This document shows positions 23,981-33,181 of a stretch of DNA of 64,000 nt, one piece after another (the stretch's first letter is position 1; every line of letters begins with the position of its first letter). The notes below the pieces were generated by a model that saw nothing but the letters and a program-made list of their open reading frames with translations, was not told the origin of the DNA and searched no databases. The DNA comes from Escherichia phage EI-SP-GF. The position numbers were made by a program, and so were the translations under genes. The stretch lies in the sequence record OR992645.1, one strand, 5' to 3'.

Positions 23981-24361
23981 TCAGTAGATGTTTTGTTTAA
24001 TCTCTATTCCAAACTTCTTGAATGAGTCAGCAGCAAGCATAAATTTACGAGCTGCCGATGGATTAGAAGTATGCACGAAAATAATCACGTTGTCAATAAG
24101 TGGTGGCTTTCCGAATACAAGTTTCTCCTCTAGCGCAGAGAAGCAGTCGTACCCTTCAAGCACTTCACCTAGATCATTGTCAAAATGCCACTCAGAAACG
24201 CGCCTGTAGAGCTTTCTATTATCGTTAATAAAATCCATGAACTCAGAAGAGTTCTTCAGCCAAAGAGCATCTTGGATTCCGTAATTTGACGGATCTCTCA
24301 AGTCATCTAGCCACACAATCAACTTCTTCATTGCATATAGTCCTCGTTGTGAAAATAGCAA
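23981..24361 (-). CDS. hypothetical protein with receiver-like motif pattern (126 aa)
   Basis: KLIVWLDD...HFDNDLG...VHTSNP pattern reminiscent of a REC-like fold; inference only. Confidence 0.3.
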   Translation of the reverse strand: MLFSQRGLYAMKKLIVWLDDLRDPSNYGIQDALWLKNSSEFMDFINDNRKLYRRVSEWHFDNDLGEVLEGYDCFSALEEKLVFGKPPLIDNVIIFVHTSNPSAARKFMLAADSFKKFGIEIKQNIY

Positions 24362-25263
24362 TCAAGTATCTCACGGCGTTCCTGCTCCAGGAGGCAGTTC
24401 CACACATCTTCTGTGTAATTGCTACGAATGAAGTTTACCATGCCATAAAACTCTTCGTCAATACGTTTAAAGATATCATCATCCCAAATCTTCCAAGCTT
24501 TACCCCTCATTACGGCCTTCCGTGCCAAATAGTATGGAGACTTGATCTTCAGCTGCAGGTCATAAGGGTAGTAAGGCTTACGGATCATATACCCTTCGCC
24601 CCTTGTTTCTGCAGCCAATTCTTTTGCATAGCTGAACGGGATTTCACGCACAGTGTGAGGACGTTTTGCACCAAGGTATTTGGCAATCCCATCTAAAGCT
24701 GCTTCTGGTAGCATTATTCCAGAATCATTATATCTGCAACCTATCAAATATGCGCCATGGTCTTCTTGAACAATATGCGGATCTGAAGGGTGACAAATTT
24801 CAAACATGAATGTCATGTTTTCATTGCCCATAACCTTCTTGATAAGATCTAAATTACCACATTGCTCTTGGATGGTTTCCTTTGCAAGGTTACAATATGG
24901 AGAATCAAGAGACCCGGTTGTTGAGAACAATAGGTCACCTTTATGAGATGATACCACACCAAGGAATCCGTTCTTTTTCTCTACCGCAGTCACAAGCTTA
25001 TTGTCAGGCAGGTTGGTGGAGTTTTCTCCCAAGTTAAACACTTTTGTGAAGGGCCATGCCACAACATTTCCTTCATTACCTACAACAATGCCTCGGCACT
25101 CCAGTAAACGAGGGGACAAATGCCATAAATTGTTGTAAAATACTTTTCTAGCATATTTATAGATCTTTAACCCGAGATCTGGGTAATACCTACTGGTTAC
25201 AAGACCTTTGTCAACTAGGTCGTCTGCATTAAAATACTTCATCATACGTTCCTCATTTGTCAT
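24328..25263 (-). CDS. putative RNA ligase (nucleotidyltransferase)
   Basis: Motif I VEKKNGF (KxNG as in Rnl1/Trl1-type ligases) and motif IV GEGYMIRKP; true start probably ATG at 25242 (GAGGAA RBS). Confidence 0.45.
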   Translation of the reverse strand: MTNEERMMKYFNADDLVDKGLVTSRYYPDLGLKIYKYARKVFYNNLWHLSPRLLECRGIVVGNEGNVVAWPFTKVFNLGENSTNLPDNKLVTAVEKKNGFLGVVSSHKGDLLFSTTGSLDSPYCNLAKETIQEQCGNLDLIKKVMGNENMTFMFEICHPSDPHIVQEDHGAYLIGCRYNDSGIMLPEAALDGIAKYLGAKRPHTVREIPFSYAKELAAETRGEGYMIRKPYYPYDLQLKIKSPYYLARKAVMRGKAWKIWDDDIFKRIDEEFYGMVNFIRSNYTEDVWNCLLEQERREILDCYFHNEDYMQ

Positions 25264-25306
25264 TTTGTCAGTCTATCCTGTCACACAAATAACCTAGTGT
25301 CAACAC

Positions 25307-25335
25307 TTGAAATTAACAAAACAGTTAGATATACT
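25307..25335 (+). promoter_or_regulatory. sigma70-like promoter (TTGAAA-N17-TATACT) for kinase/phosphoesterase operon
   Basis: Hexamers at 25307-25312 and 25330-25335 with 17-nt spacer; back to back with a minus-strand TTGACA at 25298-25303. Confidence 0.45.
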
Positions 25336-25363
25336 ATCGTTGAAATTAAAACGGGGGGTCACT

Positions 25364-25774
25364 ATGTCTAAAATGCTATATATCGTGCGTGGTCTACCAG
25401 GGTCTGGCAAATCAACACTGGCAAATGCGCTATCTTTAGAGGGTCTGTATCCACATTTTGAGAACGACATGTTCTGGTATGACGATGACGGCAATTACAA
25501 CTGGGATGCAAGTAAAGTAACACTCGCAGCGAAATGGTGCAAAGATAACGTAGAAGATATGATGCGTATGGGATACGACCGTATCGTGGTAAGTAATACG
25601 TTTACAAAAGAAAAACATGTGCAGGAATATGTTGACATGGCAATCAGTCATGGGTATAGTTATACCGTGATCGTGGTTGAAAACCGCCACGGTAATAAAA
25701 GCATTCATGATGTTCCAGACAAGGTTGTGGATCGTATGGAACGCCAGCTTAAAAACTGCATTAAACTTAAATGA
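25364..25774 (+). CDS. P-loop polynucleotide-kinase-like protein
   Basis: Walker A VRGLPGSGKSTLA at N-terminus; start moved to ATG 25364 (GGGGGG RBS). Confidence 0.6.
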   Translation: MSKMLYIVRGLPGSGKSTLANALSLEGLYPHFENDMFWYDDDGNYNWDASKVTLAAKWCKDNVEDMMRMGYDRIVVSNTFTKEKHVQEYVDMAISHGYSYTVIVVENRHGNKSIHDVPDKVVDRMERQLKNCIKLK

Positions 25775-25781
25775 GGAATGT

Positions 25782-26336
25782 ATGAAATACTTTGTAACAA
25801 GCGACACACACTTTCTCCACCAGCGGGTCATGGAGTTTGATTCATGTCAAAAACACAGATCTCAGTATGATCACAATCTTGACAGTATGAATGCGGGAAT
25901 CATCGCCGAATGGAACTCTGTTGTGTCACCTGCAGACACTGTGTTCCACTTGGGAGATATTGCGTGCACTAATGATAAGAATATCAACAACTTACTTCCA
26001 GATATTCTAAATATGTTGAACGGACATATTATTCTTGTTCGTGGCAACCATGACACAAGGACGACTGTCAGAATTATGAAAGAGTTCGGTCATGAGGTTG
26101 TAGATTATTACGAGCTTCGCCACAACAAGAATTTGATCTGTATGAGCCATTACCAATTTGCAAAGTGGAACAGAAATCCTCACGGATCAGTCCAACTGTT
26201 CGGTCATGCTCACGGAACCACACAACAGTTGTTTGGCAGGCAGCTTGATGTCGGTTGGGATGTGTGGGGGAGACTCTTACCATTAGAAGAGGCATACCGT
26301 ATTGCAATGAGTTTTGCTATTGACAGCGGGGAGTAA
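25782..26336 (+). CDS. calcineurin-like metallophosphoesterase
   Basis: Motifs SDTHF, LGDIA, VRGNHD; start moved to ATG 25782 (GAGGAA RBS) directly after kinase stop. Confidence 0.65.
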   Translation: MKYFVTSDTHFLHQRVMEFDSCQKHRSQYDHNLDSMNAGIIAEWNSVVSPADTVFHLGDIACTNDKNINNLLPDILNMLNGHIILVRGNHDTRTTVRIMKEFGHEVVDYYELRHNKNLICMSHYQFAKWNRNPHGSVQLFGHAHGTTQQLFGRQLDVGWDVWGRLLPLEEAYRIAMSFAIDSGE

Positions 26337-26383
26337 TCCCTGCTATTTTAAAGAAAATTGCCACACAAGGAGAATCAGGAGAT

Positions 26384-26734
26384 ATGAAAGATGGGGATAA
26401 GCTGCTATATCTTAAAGTCCCCCTTGAAATACTGTCTATGTCAAAAGTTTTGAATGACACAACTGGAGAGGTTGTTGTTCTTGACTTGTATGACAAGATC
26501 GTATACTGCTACCTGCACAACTGGTATAAGCTTGGAGGAAATTCACGCTTCACACCCAGCACAAGGAAAATTGCAGCAGATGTTGGGATAAAGAAAACAA
26601 AAGCAGCAGCGTGCGTTAAAACTTTAGAGTGTGCAGGGGTGGTTGAAACATCCACACAAGGGAGAGGTAAAAGATGCACATTTTCCAAAGTTTTGCCACC
26701 AGAAGAAGTTATTCGGATGTCAACAACTGGTTAG
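26384..26734 (+). CDS. putative HTH DNA-binding protein (116 aa)
   Basis: STRKIAADVGIKKTKAAACVKTLECAGVVE resembles a winged-helix/HTH recognition segment. Confidence 0.4.
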   Translation: MKDGDKLLYLKVPLEILSMSKVLNDTTGEVVVLDLYDKIVYCYLHNWYKLGGNSRFTPSTRKIAADVGIKKTKAAACVKTLECAGVVETSTQGRGKRCTFSKVLPPEEVIRMSTTG

Positions 26735-26809
26735 ACCAGTAAAAACTTAAATATCTGTACTATAAGGATTCGTATGTTTTATGTTCGCTCTAGAATAGAG
26801 GTCAGTAAC

Positions 26810-26890
26810 TGTCCGTGATACGGACACTACTGTCCGTCACGCGGACACATCTGCCCGTAATACGGACACTAACTGTCCGTGATACGGACA
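26810..26890. repeat. four tandem 17-bp palindromic operator-like sites (TGTCCG-N5-CGGACA)
   Basis: Copies at 26810-26826, 26831-26847, 26853-26869, 26874-26890; copies 1 and 4 identical, 2 and 3 slightly degenerate; centre-to-centre spacing 21-22 bp. Confidence 0.65.
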
Positions 26891-27395
26891 CATAAAGAAT
26901 ATAACTAAAATAACTAAATAATAAAAAATAAAAGATCTAGTACTTATGGTACTAAAGTACATATACTTAACTTATGTAGAATATACTAGATCCTAAGTAC
27001 CATGTTTTAAATTTATTACTTACTATAGGTAGTGTCGGCCCTTCATTGGCACTCGCCTACGAGGGGCGAGATGCCGGGCCTCCATAGTGCACACAATAAC
27101 AGAAGTGCATACATGCAGGTCTGTTAACATGTGTGGGAGCGAAGCGATAGCGCAGGCCAAAGGCCGAGCACTAATGTGGACCACCGACGAAAGCTTGCCA
27201 GCGCCGTAAGGGGTCGGTTGAGAGCCTCCCGCGCGAGTTTGGATAAAGTTTATGTGTGGAAACTGACAAGAAGGCCCCTAAATCGCTCCACAGCTATATA
27301 AACTATACCAAGTAAGGCAATCGCACCAGTTTGATAGAAAAGCTCGTTACAAAGCGATACAGTTAGTTTTTCTATAACTTGAAGAGGAGTCTGCT

Positions 27396-27974
27396 ATGAG
27401 TTCACGCAAAGATGCCAGTGAAAAGATTGCAAAACGTTATCAGAATGAAGAACAGATGGAGAAAACTTTCAAGTGGAAGCCAGGTTTCCAGCGTAATCAT
27501 TCTAACGCTCGTGATCGTAAGCATCCTGATAAGTGGCTAACACCGCCAAATGATGGCATGCAGGTTGGTGATGAGAAGGAGCTATCACCTGGAAAAGATG
27601 GCAACTACATTCGCACTAAGGACGCTAGTCCAAAGGATGACAGCTATCTTGTAGATAAGGTTCTTAATGGTATTGATGTAGATGTTGACACTACACGGAA
27701 CTTTTTTCTTGGGTGGTATCGCACAGGTTTTTTCGACATCAAGGCCATTCGTCGTGTTTGTGATATTAAAAAGTCTGCATATGATGACGACTCGTTACAT
27801 CGCACACTGAGACAATATTCAGAAAGATATGGTCATCCGGTTATCACTCTTGACGATGTTAACGAAGTGATGTATCATGCAGAGGTTGTTGCAGGCAGAT
27901 TTGGTGATGCATATCTTGATATCCTTTCTGCAAACGATGAGGTAATGTTGAATAAGATTTACTACGAACGTTGA
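27396..27974 (+). CDS. hypothetical protein (192 aa)
   Basis: ORF track; GAGGAG RBS upstream. Confidence 0.45.
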   Translation: MSSRKDASEKIAKRYQNEEQMEKTFKWKPGFQRNHSNARDRKHPDKWLTPPNDGMQVGDEKELSPGKDGNYIRTKDASPKDDSYLVDKVLNGIDVDVDTTRNFFLGWYRTGFFDIKAIRRVCDIKKSAYDDDSLHRTLRQYSERYGHPVITLDDVNEVMYHAEVVAGRFGDAYLDILSANDEVMLNKIYYER

Positions 27975-28492: not shown

Positions 28493-28780
28493 GGTTGTTT
28501 TCGTGTATCATGATGAATATCCAATTTAAAGATGAGTTTGATGGCTTTATCTCCGGATGCTTTGAAACAGGGTTTGGAGAAGGCTGAGTTCCCCTTAGAG
28601 GGCTTGATAGTGCACCACACTTAAAATGGTAGGGGCAGCCAGCACATGACGATGTGACCCCAGCCAACCTGTAATAAGGTCGAGCCAGAGCGCGGTAATG
28701 GGTATCTGGTAACCCACTTGTTGGGTCTTGCTGGTCCAGGACGCTGGGCAAGTCGCAGGGAATACCACCCTGCGGCGAAC

Positions 28781-28809
28781 TTGACAATCAGTATTTGCCG
28801 TGATAAAAT
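28781..28809 (+). promoter_or_regulatory. sigma70-like promoter (TTGACA-N17-TAAAAT) overlapped by inverted repeat CGTGATA/TATCACG
   Basis: Hexamers at 28781-28786 and 28804-28809; palindrome arms flank the -10. Confidence 0.45.
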
Positions 28810-28837
28810 CCACCTATCACGTGATAATGGAGGAAAC

Positions 28838-29477: not shown

Positions 29478-29562
29478 GGTGAGTTAATTCCGTAGGGGTA
29501 GCGGGGCAGACTGTAAATCTGTTATCATTGCGATTCGGGTGGTTCGACTCCATCACTCACCA
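29478..29562 (+). tRNA. tRNA-Tyr(GTA), type II with long variable arm
   Basis: Acceptor GGTGAGT/ACTCACC, anticodon loop CTGTAAA, T-loop TTCGACT, CCA encoded. Confidence 0.75.
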
Positions 29563-29868: not shown

Positions 29869-29965
29869 GCTAGGTAAGCCCTTTGGCAAGGGCGAGGATT
29901 TTTAATCCTGAAAATAGACGAGGTAGTCGTTGAATACATAGATGGTTCGATTCCATCACCTAGCA
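29869..29965 (+). pseudogene. aberrant tRNA-like element (possible degenerate tRNA-Lys(TTT)-like)
   Basis: Canonical acceptor GCTAGGT/ACCTAGC, D-arm GCCC/GGGC and T-arm GATGG-TTCGATT-CCATC, but 97 nt long with about 30 nt between anticodon-like hairpin and T-arm. Confidence 0.35.
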
Positions 29966-29971
29966 CCTTTT

Positions 29972-31031: not shown

Positions 31032-31315
31032 GAGTTACTGCACTGGTTGTTTTGTGCTTGTTATTGTGTGGGTGTGCAACCAGCGTTGAGAGAGAATACA
31101 AGATTGACCCTCCGGATGTAGGAAGGTTGATTGTTAAACCTCCCGAGGGTGCTATGAAACCACCTGCTAAAGCTATCCCTTTGAAGAAAGGTGCGCCAGA
31201 TGCGGTGAATTCTGGCATTATGAGGGATAATAACCTGTCTTGTAGTAATGATAGAGCTAAATTAATCATTTTGCAAGACTATATTAGAACACTGTTTCCA
31301 AAGGAGAGAGGTTAA
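31028..31315 (+). CDS. o-spanin (Rz1-like outer-membrane lipoprotein)
   Basis: Signal peptide with lipobox LLLCGC, Pro-rich mature part. Confidence 0.65.
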   Translation: MRVTALVVLCLLLCGCATSVEREYKIDPPDVGRLIVKPPEGAMKPPAKAIPLKKGAPDAVNSGIMRDNNLSCSNDRAKLIILQDYIRTLFPKERG

Positions 31316-31740
31316 TGTCTAAGATTTACGGACCGTGTTCTGAAAAGCAGAAGATGATCCTGGAAAATGATGCAGATATTTTGGTAATTGGCGGGGCTGC
31401 AGGATCTGGCAAGTCATTCCTCTTGCAGCTAATGCCGCTTAAAATTATTGATGACCCGCACAGCTCTGTGGTTATGTTCCGAAGAACAACCCCACAGTTG
31501 GAAGGTGAGGGGGGACTATGGCCTAAAGCAGTAGCTATTTATAGTGATCTGCCAGAAAACATTAAGCCAAAGTTTAGAGAGAAGGATCATAAGTTCATTT
31601 TTCCACGGTTTGATCCGAGCACTGGCAAGTGGGACAGGAGCAAAAAGGGAGCTGTTGTAAAATACTGCCACATGGAATATGTCCAAGATAAGCTTAACCA
31701 TCAGGGTTTGGAATACACCATGGTTTGCTTCGATGAGGGT
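31315..31740 (+). CDS. terminase large subunit, exon 1 (ATPase Walker A and B)
   Basis: Walker A GGAAGSGKS and Walker B MVCFDEG; ORF stops immediately after Walker B at the intron edge. Confidence 0.8.
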
Positions 31741-32092
31741 TAATTTGTAGCTCTCGTAAAACCTCCCTAATTGCGGGGAAATCTTTATTATTGACACCAC
31801 CAACCTGTCATGGTAACATAATAGAGGCTTCGAAGAGAGATCGAAGGTATGGTAACAGTGTGTTAATTTAGATAATCCGCAGCGAAGCATCCGAGAGGAT
31901 GAACGTTCAACGACTAGTCGAAAGACGTAGAATCAAGCGATTCGAAACGGGAGGGTAAGCGGTTGTTGTCGCTTATAAGATATAGTCTGGTCTGCATGGA
32001 GACATGCAGCTGCCTGAAAATGGCGGGGCAAGACTAGCGACCTTGCCCGAACATGAACGACACAATTCGAATGGGAGCAGATAGACTATCTG
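31741..32092 (+). ncRNA. group I intron (ORF-less) interrupting terminase large subunit; 3' boundary approximate (32057-32092)
   Basis: Canonical P/Q/R/S elements: AATTGCGGGGAAA (31769-31781), AATCCGCAGC (31874-31883), GTTCAACGACTAGTCG (31905-31920), AAGATATAGTCTGG (31977-31990); exon 1 ends with U. Confidence 0.7.
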
Positions 32093-33181
32093 ATGTCTCG
32101 TCTGCGATCTCAGTCAAAGTATCCATCAAGAATGGTTATCAGCTGTAACCCCGATTCAGAACACATGCTTGCCAAACTGGTTAGATGGTGGTTGGACGAT
32201 GAAGGGTATCCAGATCCGGAGAAATGCGGTAAGAAAAGATATTTTATCCGACGCGACGGTGAATTTATCTGGGGAGACTCTAAAGAAGAGTTGATAGAGA
32301 AATACACCACGGTTAACGGACTTGGCGTAGAGATCAAGCCAAGACCGTTGTCATTCTCGTTCATAGGCGCAACAATATTCGATAATCCTGTCTGTTTGAG
32401 AGACAACCCAGAATACCTTGCTTTCCTCGAAGGTCTACCAGAGCTGGAAAAAGCTCAGCTTCTCCATGGTAACTGGTTTGCAAAGCCTGAGGGTGCAAAC
32501 TATTTTCAAAGATCTTTCCTTCGTGATGCCGATAGAGTACCTCTTGGGTCAGTATCTTGCAGGGCATGGGATAAGGCAGGAACCGAGAGAACTTCCGGTA
32601 ATAAATTTCCTGACTTTACTGCCAGTATTAAGGTAAGTAAAGATAGCGACGGCTTTTATTACCTGTCCGGTGATTATTGTCCTGAGAACGTGGATGACGG
32701 GAGGTATTCCACAGGTCTGGAAGGCAAGTTCTGTAAAAAGGCTGGTGAACGAGATGTGATCATCAGGAAACAGGCGCAGTTCGATGGTGATGATTGCATA
32801 ATCGTCTTCTCTGTGGACCCAGGGCAGGCAGGTAAGAGTGAGTTCTTAACCTCCTCCAGATCCTTGCTTGCCGAAGGGTTCAGGGTTGAAGAAGACCCAA
32901 TGCCTTCCAACAAGTCTAAACTGACAAGGTTCTCACCTTTTGCCAATCTTGCCCAACAAGGAATGGTGAGGATTGTAAAATCCAGTTTCCATCCTGATAC
33001 TCTGGAAGCATTTCTGACTGAACTTGAAAAATTCAACGGGGAAAGATCAACATTTAACAGAAAAGACGACTGGGCCGACTGTGTAGCTTCTGCGATTAAT
33101 TTCCTAGAGAAAGAGGAGGTAGCACTTCCTTGTGTGATTCCATCAATCTCATCACCTTCTATGTTCAAGCGTTTTATCTAA
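32093..33181 (+). CDS. terminase large subunit, exon 2 (nuclease domain)
   Basis: Continues terminase after the intron in a different frame; frame open from 32057, so exon may start up to 36 nt upstream of ATG 32093. Confidence 0.75.
   Translation: MSRLRSQSKYPSRMVISCNPDSEHMLAKLVRWWLDDEGYPDPEKCGKKRYFIRRDGEFIWGDSKEELIEKYTTVNGLGVEIKPRPLSFSFIGATIFDNPVCLRDNPEYLAFLEGLPELEKAQLLHGNWFAKPEGANYFQRSFLRDADRVPLGSVSCRAWDKAGTERTSGNKFPDFTASIKVSKDSDGFYYLSGDYCPENVDDGRYSTGLEGKFCKKAGERDVIIRKQAQFDGDDCIIVFSVDPGQAGKSEFLTSSRSLLAEGFRVEEDPMPSNKSKLTRFSPFANLAQQGMVRIVKSSFHPDTLEAFLTELEKFNGERSTFNRKDDWADCVASAINFLEKEEVALPCVIPSISSPSMFKRFI

Follow-up and report, generated by a model that had tools for sequence, protein, structure and literature searches.

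A candidate iteron-type replication origin and an adjoining conserved hairpin array in an intergenic gap of an rV5-like Escherichia phage

The intergenic gap at 26735-27395 (661 bp) of Escherichia phage EI-SP-GF holds a real, composite feature. We analysed a stretch of 64,000 nucleotides of this phage (sequence record OR992645.1; called the window throughout). The left half of the gap is best read as a further example of an iteron origin, and the right half as a conserved hairpin array that matches no described family. Our leading explanation, held with about even confidence, is that the gap combines an iteron origin with a cis-acting accessory element that folds when single-stranded. The window belongs to an rV5-like Vequintavirus, an E. 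coli myovirus of ~137 kb. Phage vB_EcoM_10C2_SA_NWU shares 99.8% identity with positions 26300-27500, a region that is matched at ≥90% identity by 118 phage records. Both genes flanking the gap lie in a rightward transcription unit that runs from ~25300 to the tRNA cluster. In the genome paper of rV5, skew analysis could not define an origin, and no signals were predicted in the gap (PMC3606486). Our search of the literature on rV5-like phages found no report of an origin, a non-coding RNA, a transcriptome or a satellite. No origin has so far been defined in these phages, which have found wide use in the biocontrol of E. coli O157 and in therapy collections, and the locus provides a precise, testable candidate. 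The features are listed in Table 1.

Table 1. Features of the gap and its flanking genes (positions in the window)
Feature	Position	Strand	Basis or description
116-aa gene, left of gap	26384-26734	+	winged-helix, initiator-like
Iterons, four 17-bp palindromes TGTCCGTnnnnCGGACA	26810-26826, 26831-26847, 26852-26868, 26874-26890		repeat search
AT-rich block, candidate DNA-unwinding element	26892-27025		134 bp, GC 0.194
GC-rich non-coding hairpin array (whole element)	27034-27300		composition, homology, no codon periodicity
Hairpin 1, 5 + 4 + 7 bp, conserved TTCA(T/A)T bulge	27037-27080		folding and compensation
Hairpin 2, CACACA/TGTGTG, AACAGA/TCTGTT, TGCA/TGCA	27090-27135		z = -3.9
Core hairpin, 6-bp stem 27183-27188/27213-27218	27183-27218		compensation
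Conserved motif GAGAG(C/T)CTCCCGCGC	27220-27234		3' of core hairpin; phages and all plasmid types
Conserved motif GGCC(C/T)CTAAATCGC	27273-27286		near 3' edge of element; aligns with plasmid CCCCTAAATGGC
Leader, ordinary composition	27301-27395	+	95 bp, GC 0.379
Ribosome-binding site GAGGAG	27384-27389	+	for the 192-aa gene
192-aa gene, right of gap	27396-27974	+	start codon at 27396

An earlier note, made from the sequence of the window, had described an AT-rich block with short AGTAC/GTACT inverted repeats, followed by a GC-rich stretch free of long ORFs, and had suggested a replication origin, a small RNA or a leader for the downstream gene. The AT-rich block was borne out: its GC content, compared to 0.436 for the window, is the lowest of all 134-bp windows in the 64 kb, the next locus being at 0.261. 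The inverted repeats were also confirmed, with four GTAC motifs (26940, 26949, 26957 and 26997) falling within 61 bp, against a window rate of 1.5 per kb, and a perfect 9-bp inverted repeat formed by GATCTAGTA (26934-26942) and TACTAGATC (26984-26992). Absent from the earlier note were the four iterons, which end one base before the position at which it began, and the upstream initiator-like gene. The iterons have a period of 21-22 bp and are the sole such sites in the 64 kb, where 0.66 would be expected by chance at two or fewer mismatches. At least three direct repeats of 17-22 bp in helical phase and an adjoining AT-rich element mark an iteron origin, and both were found here. DnaA boxes occur in many, not all, iteron-type (theta) origins; a search of the gap with TTWTNCACA found none, the nearest being a site with one mismatch at 27238-27246. 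Iteron copy number was 2 in navn, 3 in nomine and FFH2, and 4 in the other relatives, and the number (2, 3 or 4) varies even between nearly identical phages (L003, L005 and L006). Three metagenome contigs stop 113-168 bp past the upstream gene, at the repeats; assemblies often break at repeats.

Conservation was measured in an alignment of 14 relatives, reaching down to 89.6% identity. Variable columns made up 9% of the AT block, 11% of the iterons and 17% of the GC-rich part, compared to 6-11% of codon positions 1+2 and 26-31% of third codon positions in the flanking genes. The AT block and the iterons are therefore constrained like protein-coding positions, and by this measure the conservation of the AT block appears equal to that of first and second codon positions. 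Constraint on the GC-rich part, as judged from the same columns, is moderate and patchy.

The 116-aa protein encoded immediately upstream matched PHROG 12838, 'replication initiation protein', at 5e-80 and, less strongly, the segments of longer initiator families that bind DNA (phrog_8102, 428 and 270). Scores against Pfam HTH_36 and DUF6945 were just under the cut-offs (27.4 compared to 28, and 24.5 compared to 25), and a weak resemblance to the N-terminal domains of staphylococcal RepA was seen in the PDB. The protein corresponds to a DNA-binding domain alone, and its family is limited to Vequintavirus. We consider the 116-aa protein a putative origin-binding protein. Many records, however, annotate it as a transcriptional regulator, and its other weak profile matches are to the helix-turn-helix domains of CodY, LexA and TrmB. 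The region could then be purely regulatory, with the 116-aa protein as a repressor, the palindromes as its operators and the AT/GC-rich stretch as a promoter or leader of the downstream operon. Phage operator arrays, of which lambda OR/OL is an example, resemble the 17-bp palindromes at a period of ~21 bp, and it must be said against an origin that palindromes with such a spacing also fit an operator array. We nevertheless find a purely regulatory region improbable: no sigma-70-like promoter was detected at 26735-27395, and none is predicted there in rV5 either, the palindromes come after the gene for the regulator itself, with 500 bp left before the next start codon, and the best profile matches of the protein are to replication initiators, its plasmid counterpart (described below) matching O-like initiators.

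Evidence for an origin also came from a divergent relative, L119, an IMG/VR contig of 137 kb with the same neighbourhood. All of the L119 sequence between the phosphoesterase gene and the equivalent of 27034 differs from the window. The counterpart protein in L119 has 143 aa and 28% identity to the 116-aa protein, and matches the same segment of the initiator profile. At the same position as the iterons, L119 carries repeats of the ATCTGATGCA type in at least five copies and in both orientations, and its AT-rich or pyrimidine-rich stretch is different and shorter. Homology restarts exactly at GTCGGCCC (27034), with 82% identity, and continues on into the 192-aa gene. Initiator and repeats thus co-vary, L119 providing a second pair and the plasmids a third. 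Such a joint exchange of initiator, iterons and AT block would show the behaviour of a cognate initiator/origin module, and because the swap stops at 27034, the edge of the GC-rich element, that element is a separate unit. The origin that the earlier note had suggested among other options has in this way gained strong circumstantial support from the iterons, the initiator-like gene and the cassette swap.

The arrangement is similar to that of lambda ori, in which four dyad-symmetric iterons lie about two helical turns apart with an AT-rich block on one side, and where O, the cognate winged-helix initiator, is encoded at the same locus; in lambda relatives the initiator and the iterons change together. 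Four palindromic iterons, a flanking AT block, a winged-helix initiator (here a putative one) at the locus and their co-change are common to both. Unlike lambda, the origin proposed here is downstream of the initiator gene and not inside it, the protein has a mere 116 aa and lacks a recognisable helicase-recruiting domain, and the AT block is about three times longer and is followed by the 270-bp hairpin array.

The GC-rich stretch of the earlier note was found to be the most GC-rich 275-bp window of the 64 kb (27026-27300, 54.5-54.9%), while its length is ~270 bp rather than the 350 bp proposed. Homology of the window element with L119 and with the plasmid L021 begins at GTCGGCCC in both cases. 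The longest ORFs in the gap are of 56 aa (+) and 53 aa (-), in agreement with the statement that none exceeds 60 aa. Variable sites in the element are spread evenly over the three phases (15/15/16, total 46; p = 0.98), compared to 7/12/36 and 21/11/51 in the flanking genes (p about 1e-6). A small gene in the element was ruled out by the lack of codon periodicity and by open frames that differ between clades; in the short ORFs that are present, the implied amino-acid changes are as frequent as nucleotide changes. The conserved small coding frame by which the earlier note would have been refuted was not found in the GC-rich element. Sister genera carry many tRNAs in the corresponding region, and a decayed tRNA gene was considered and ruled out, as there was no similarity to the tRNA clusters of the sister genera and no tRNA-like match; ARAGORN and the Rfam tRNA model detected no tRNA or tRNA-like gene at 26700-27450. 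Three single-base homopolymer indels in the element, together with a split downstream gene, were seen in phage Alma (L007), and suggest sequencing errors in the OV101294.1 record. The motif TGTGTGG showed no more than a mild enrichment (8 copies in the window, with 2.7 expected) and serves as a helix arm in differing ways.

The covariance-model scan that had been proposed as a check placed the element in no described family. Rfam 15 searched at gathering thresholds over the whole window gave no match in the gap, and at E up to 10 the gap showed a single, spurious match to rli43 over the AT-rich block (26 bits compared to 100). Rfam searches of two plasmids carrying the element also gave no match. 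A plain leader for the 192-aa gene, the third suggestion of the earlier note, is unlikely, since the plasmid copies of the element lack that gene, and since a distant homologue of the gene occurs in a different setting that lacks the element. This homologue, with 50% identity, lies among DNA ligase genes in another phage. The 192-aa protein had no Pfam, NCBIfam or PDB match, its AlphaFold model was poor (pLDDT 55), and a fold search returned nothing significant. A second GC-rich, ORF-poor stretch is present at 28493-28837, containing the third most GC-rich 275-bp window and lying upstream of a strong promoter-like site at 28781-28809. This stretch is 95-98% conserved even in a clade that is ~90% identical overall, shows moderate folding (z about -2.5), has no Rfam match and is absent from the plasmids.

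Folding of the 296 nt from 27025 was better than that of shuffled sequences on both strands (z = -3.1 and -3.6). Copies of the element in plasmids supplied the divergence that is missing among phages, and were used together with L119 to ask which helices are maintained. Compensatory base changes, which the earlier note had asked for in relatives, were found at six pairs changed on both sides and distributed over three hairpins: two in hairpin 1, three in the core hairpin and one in hairpin 2. No pair is broken between phage and plasmid in the supported hairpins, and slid controls dropped to 20-57% paired.

Hairpin 1 contains the nested stem of the earlier note, GGCCC (27037-27041) and GGGCC (27076-27080) enclosing GGCA/TGCC and CTCGCC(T)/(G)GGCGAG. 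As RNA it folds at -28.1 kcal/mol (z = -3.0), and as DNA with z values of -3.1 and -3.3 on the two strands. Of seven differences between plasmid L021 and the phage, four constitute two G-C to U-A exchanges and the rest are in the bulge or loop; 99% of cells are paired. Hairpin 2 is the most variable part of the element. Its pair A27105-T27120 is replaced by C-G in L119, and its internal loop is remodelled in the Aya clade. The core hairpin has a nearly invariant loop of 24 nt, GAAAGCTTGCCAGCGCCG(T/G)AAGG(G/A). Eleven differences separate phage and plasmid cores, and three of the changes are double-sided (A-U to G-C, C-G to U-A and A-U to C-G), such that 98.5% of cells are paired, a score reached by none of 500 shuffles (0/500) and higher than that of all slid controls. 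In plasmids L122 and L125 the core stem is wholly replaced by TCCGGAT/ATCCGGA and the loop also differs, and the flanks AATGTGGA and GAGTCTCCCGCGC are kept. The core segment folds worse than its shuffles (z = +1.6) and its loop is near-invariant; the loop therefore seems to be kept open. Three further helices were rejected: a long-range helix of 27136-27142 with 27283-27289 and a helix at 27227-27260, both from RNAalifold, are not kept in L119 or the plasmids, and 4 of 11 sequences cannot form the inner helix predicted within the core loop.

These properties may indicate that either the element acts as DNA when single-stranded, or it is a structured non-coding RNA. In the latter case the + strand would be transcribed within the early operon and perhaps processed, the conserved loops would act on a partner, either protein or RNA, and might serve in regulation, in antitermination or to sequester a factor, and the proximity to an origin would be historical. 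We regard this as possible rather than probable. The element is co-oriented with its flanking genes in phages and plasmids, and a promoter is predicted upstream at 26320-26349 with no terminator predicted between it and the element; lying inside a + strand unit without a predicted terminator, the element would be made as part of a longer RNA. Helices that are compensated around invariant loops and junctions, and a core loop kept unpaired, would also be expected of an RNA, and loops that are conserved and open would serve equally well for recognition between RNA and protein, which weighs against a signal acting at the level of DNA. A few G-U pairs are present on the + strand at three helix ends, where the other strand would give A-C mismatches, and this is a weak hint in favour of the + strand as far as the sequences go. 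On the other hand, the well-supported helices are nearly all Watson-Crick, and the folding of hairpins 1 and 2 favours neither RNA over DNA nor one strand over the other (z = -3.1 to -3.4 as DNA on both strands). Four of the six compensatory exchanges are double transversions with no possible G-U intermediate, which is unusual and atypical for RNA, yet compatible with it. No Rfam family was matched even at E = 10, and no conserved promoter or terminator that would bound an element transcript was predicted. An attempt to choose the strand by consensus folding failed, with plus and minus scoring alike. Of the small RNA suggested by the earlier note, therefore, what stood was a structured, non-coding element with compensatory changes; no Rfam family was matched, and the folding fits RNA and DNA alike, on either strand.

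Outside Vequintavirus, the element was not found by blastn in 50,697 phage genomes. With a covariance model of the core, each phage genome and each plasmid gave a single copy, and no copy was found in 10-kb loci of four other Vequintavirinae genera; that these phages replicate without a recognisable copy is a point against the accessory role proposed below. An apparent second matching place in most phage records was traced to the palindromic iterons matching themselves. Exact-pattern scans of genome, viral and metagenome collections gave mostly chance matches, the true extras being L119, L124, L125, L130 and L131. In blastn against E. coli genomes and plasmids, circular plasmids with a length of 13.2-13.7 kb matched the element at 82-89% identity (NZ_CP020521.1, which is L021; NZ_CP035869.1; CP148565.1; CP134895.1; and NZ_CP178698.1), and two metagenome contigs of 13.9 kb also carry it. 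No paper describing this family of ~13-kb, head/tail-encoding E. coli plasmids was found in the literature, and the family appears to be previously undescribed. Its members (~13.2-13.9 kb; L021, L120-L125 and L022) come from human, pig, chicken and metagenome sources. The 39.6-kb record NZ_CP043822.1, part of which is L022, has three copies of the element, is ~3x the 13.2-kb unit and may be a trimer, either natural or a product of assembly.

Each plasmid has an ORF-free region of 2.2-2.9 kb. Here it carries iterons of its own, placed upstream of the element and with the orientation seen in the phage. The iterons of L021 are CGGAAATATTTACCG, in five copies with a period of ~23 bp, and other plasmids have other types. 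A helix-turn-helix protein of the plasmids, initiator-like, matches O-like initiator profiles. The plasmids also encode a major head protein, for which tblastn found no match in the 50,697 phage genomes, a tape measure protein, a Neck1-like neck/tail-completion protein, and a protein 51-57% identical to the tail-tube-initiator/baseplate protein of Vequintavirus. No terminase or portal gene was recognised in them. At the nucleotide level, nothing in the plasmids matches the complete phage genome more strongly than the element, at 87-89% compared to 70-72% for the shared tail gene. The plasmids look like satellites of rV5-like phages, and we tentatively propose that the hairpin array is a cis signal common to these phages and to plasmid satellites, kept for amplification or packaging by the helper. 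Satellite and helper pairs with a common cis signal are known, as in P4, which has the cos site of P2, and in cos-type PICIs. The likeness lies in a small element with partial virion genes and a non-coding sequence highly similar to that of a large phage. Unlike P4 and the PICIs, the common sequence here is at origins and not at packaging genes, and consists of a hairpin array; moreover, the small partners are autonomous plasmids and the large one is a virulent phage, and the link to a helper is a candidate one. The sharing suggests that a virulent myovirus may have a satellite system; were this true, the element would be a handle on how the plasmids exploit the phage.

A more specific form of sharing would be a pac signal for the phage terminase, the plasmid copy allowing packaging by a helper phage. 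Head and tail parts are encoded by the plasmids but neither a terminase nor a portal could be recognised, no other DNA common to them and the whole phage genome is as well conserved as the element, and rV5 is circularly permuted, which implies headful packaging from a pac site (PMC3606486). We give this a slim chance. Compensation that preserves hairpins is not expected of a site bound by protein as duplex, and the neighbours of the element, in phage and plasmids alike, are iterons and not packaging genes. The gene for the large subunit of the terminase (31315-33181) is 4 kb downstream of the element, with tRNA and other genes between, and no terminase small-subunit gene was recognised. A group I intron at 31731-32009 (Rfam, 84 bits) interrupts this large-subunit gene, and the ORFs on either side of the intron match the N-terminal and C-terminal parts of Terminase_6.

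The reading that we prefer, an iteron origin with an accessory hairpin element, would operate in two parts. In the first, the iteron-type origin at 26810-27025, the winged-helix protein from the upstream gene would bind the four palindromic iterons, probably as dimers, with the iterons placed about two helical turns apart. Binding would open the adjoining AT-rich block, the least stable DNA of the window, and the opened block would permit entry of the phage's own DnaB-type helicase/primase; rV5 encodes its own helicase/primase (PMC3606486). The second part, the GC-rich sequence with its three or more hairpins, would fold when single-stranded and, next to the opened origin, serve as a cis-acting signal for priming or for entry of the replisome, one that the replication machinery of the phage reads and the initiator does not. 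This proposed reading by the machinery would account both for survival of the array through the exchange of initiator and iterons, and for its retention in plasmids that have their own initiators and iterons. We infer iteron binding, AT-block unwinding and the priming role of the hairpins from this arrangement. Persistence of the array through the exchange separates an initiator-specific from a machinery-specific half of the origin.

In plasmid RK2, oriV consists of iterons, then an AT-rich and then a GC-rich region, the order that is seen here. The GC-rich parts of origins of the RK2 and pMOL98 type are short and are not known to form conserved hairpins; the GC part here, in contrast, is of 270 bp, has compensated helices and is common to replicons with unrelated iterons. 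Single-strand initiation (ssi) sites are clusters of hairpins of 100-300 nt beside an origin that are active when single-stranded and are read by primase or primosome and not by the initiator, and include the G-site downstream of R1 oriR, the hairpins of the phage G4 complementary-strand origin and the primosome assembly sites of ColE1. The array resembles them in layout: stable hairpins of single-stranded DNA are predicted beside the candidate origin, with the array adjoining the AT block. It would differ from ssi sites in that the relevant primase would be the phage's own. The iteron origin of pMOL98 follows the same order as RK2 oriV, with an AT-rich region adjoining a GC-rich region of 29 bp (as cited in PMC9499019).

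Several minor observations were made in the surroundings of the locus. Beside the origin region, 24328-26336 encodes an RNA-repair-like set comprising a T4 Rnl1-type RNA ligase, an AAA_33 kinase-like protein and a metallophosphoesterase, and in relatives Sir2 and cREC_REC genes are present further to the left. Two members of the tRNA cluster are odd. To a tRNA-like gene of 97-99 nt at 29869-29967 ARAGORN assigned a four-base anticodon (atcc), while its label in the records is tRNA-Lys or tRNA-OTHER. The other, at 29478-29562, is a weak tRNA (39 bits) annotated as Tyr or as a pseudogene. Finally, 18-20 'Campylobacter phage' records (MG0656xx) are 97-98% identical to E. coli rV5-like phages at the locus, and their host labels look doubtful.
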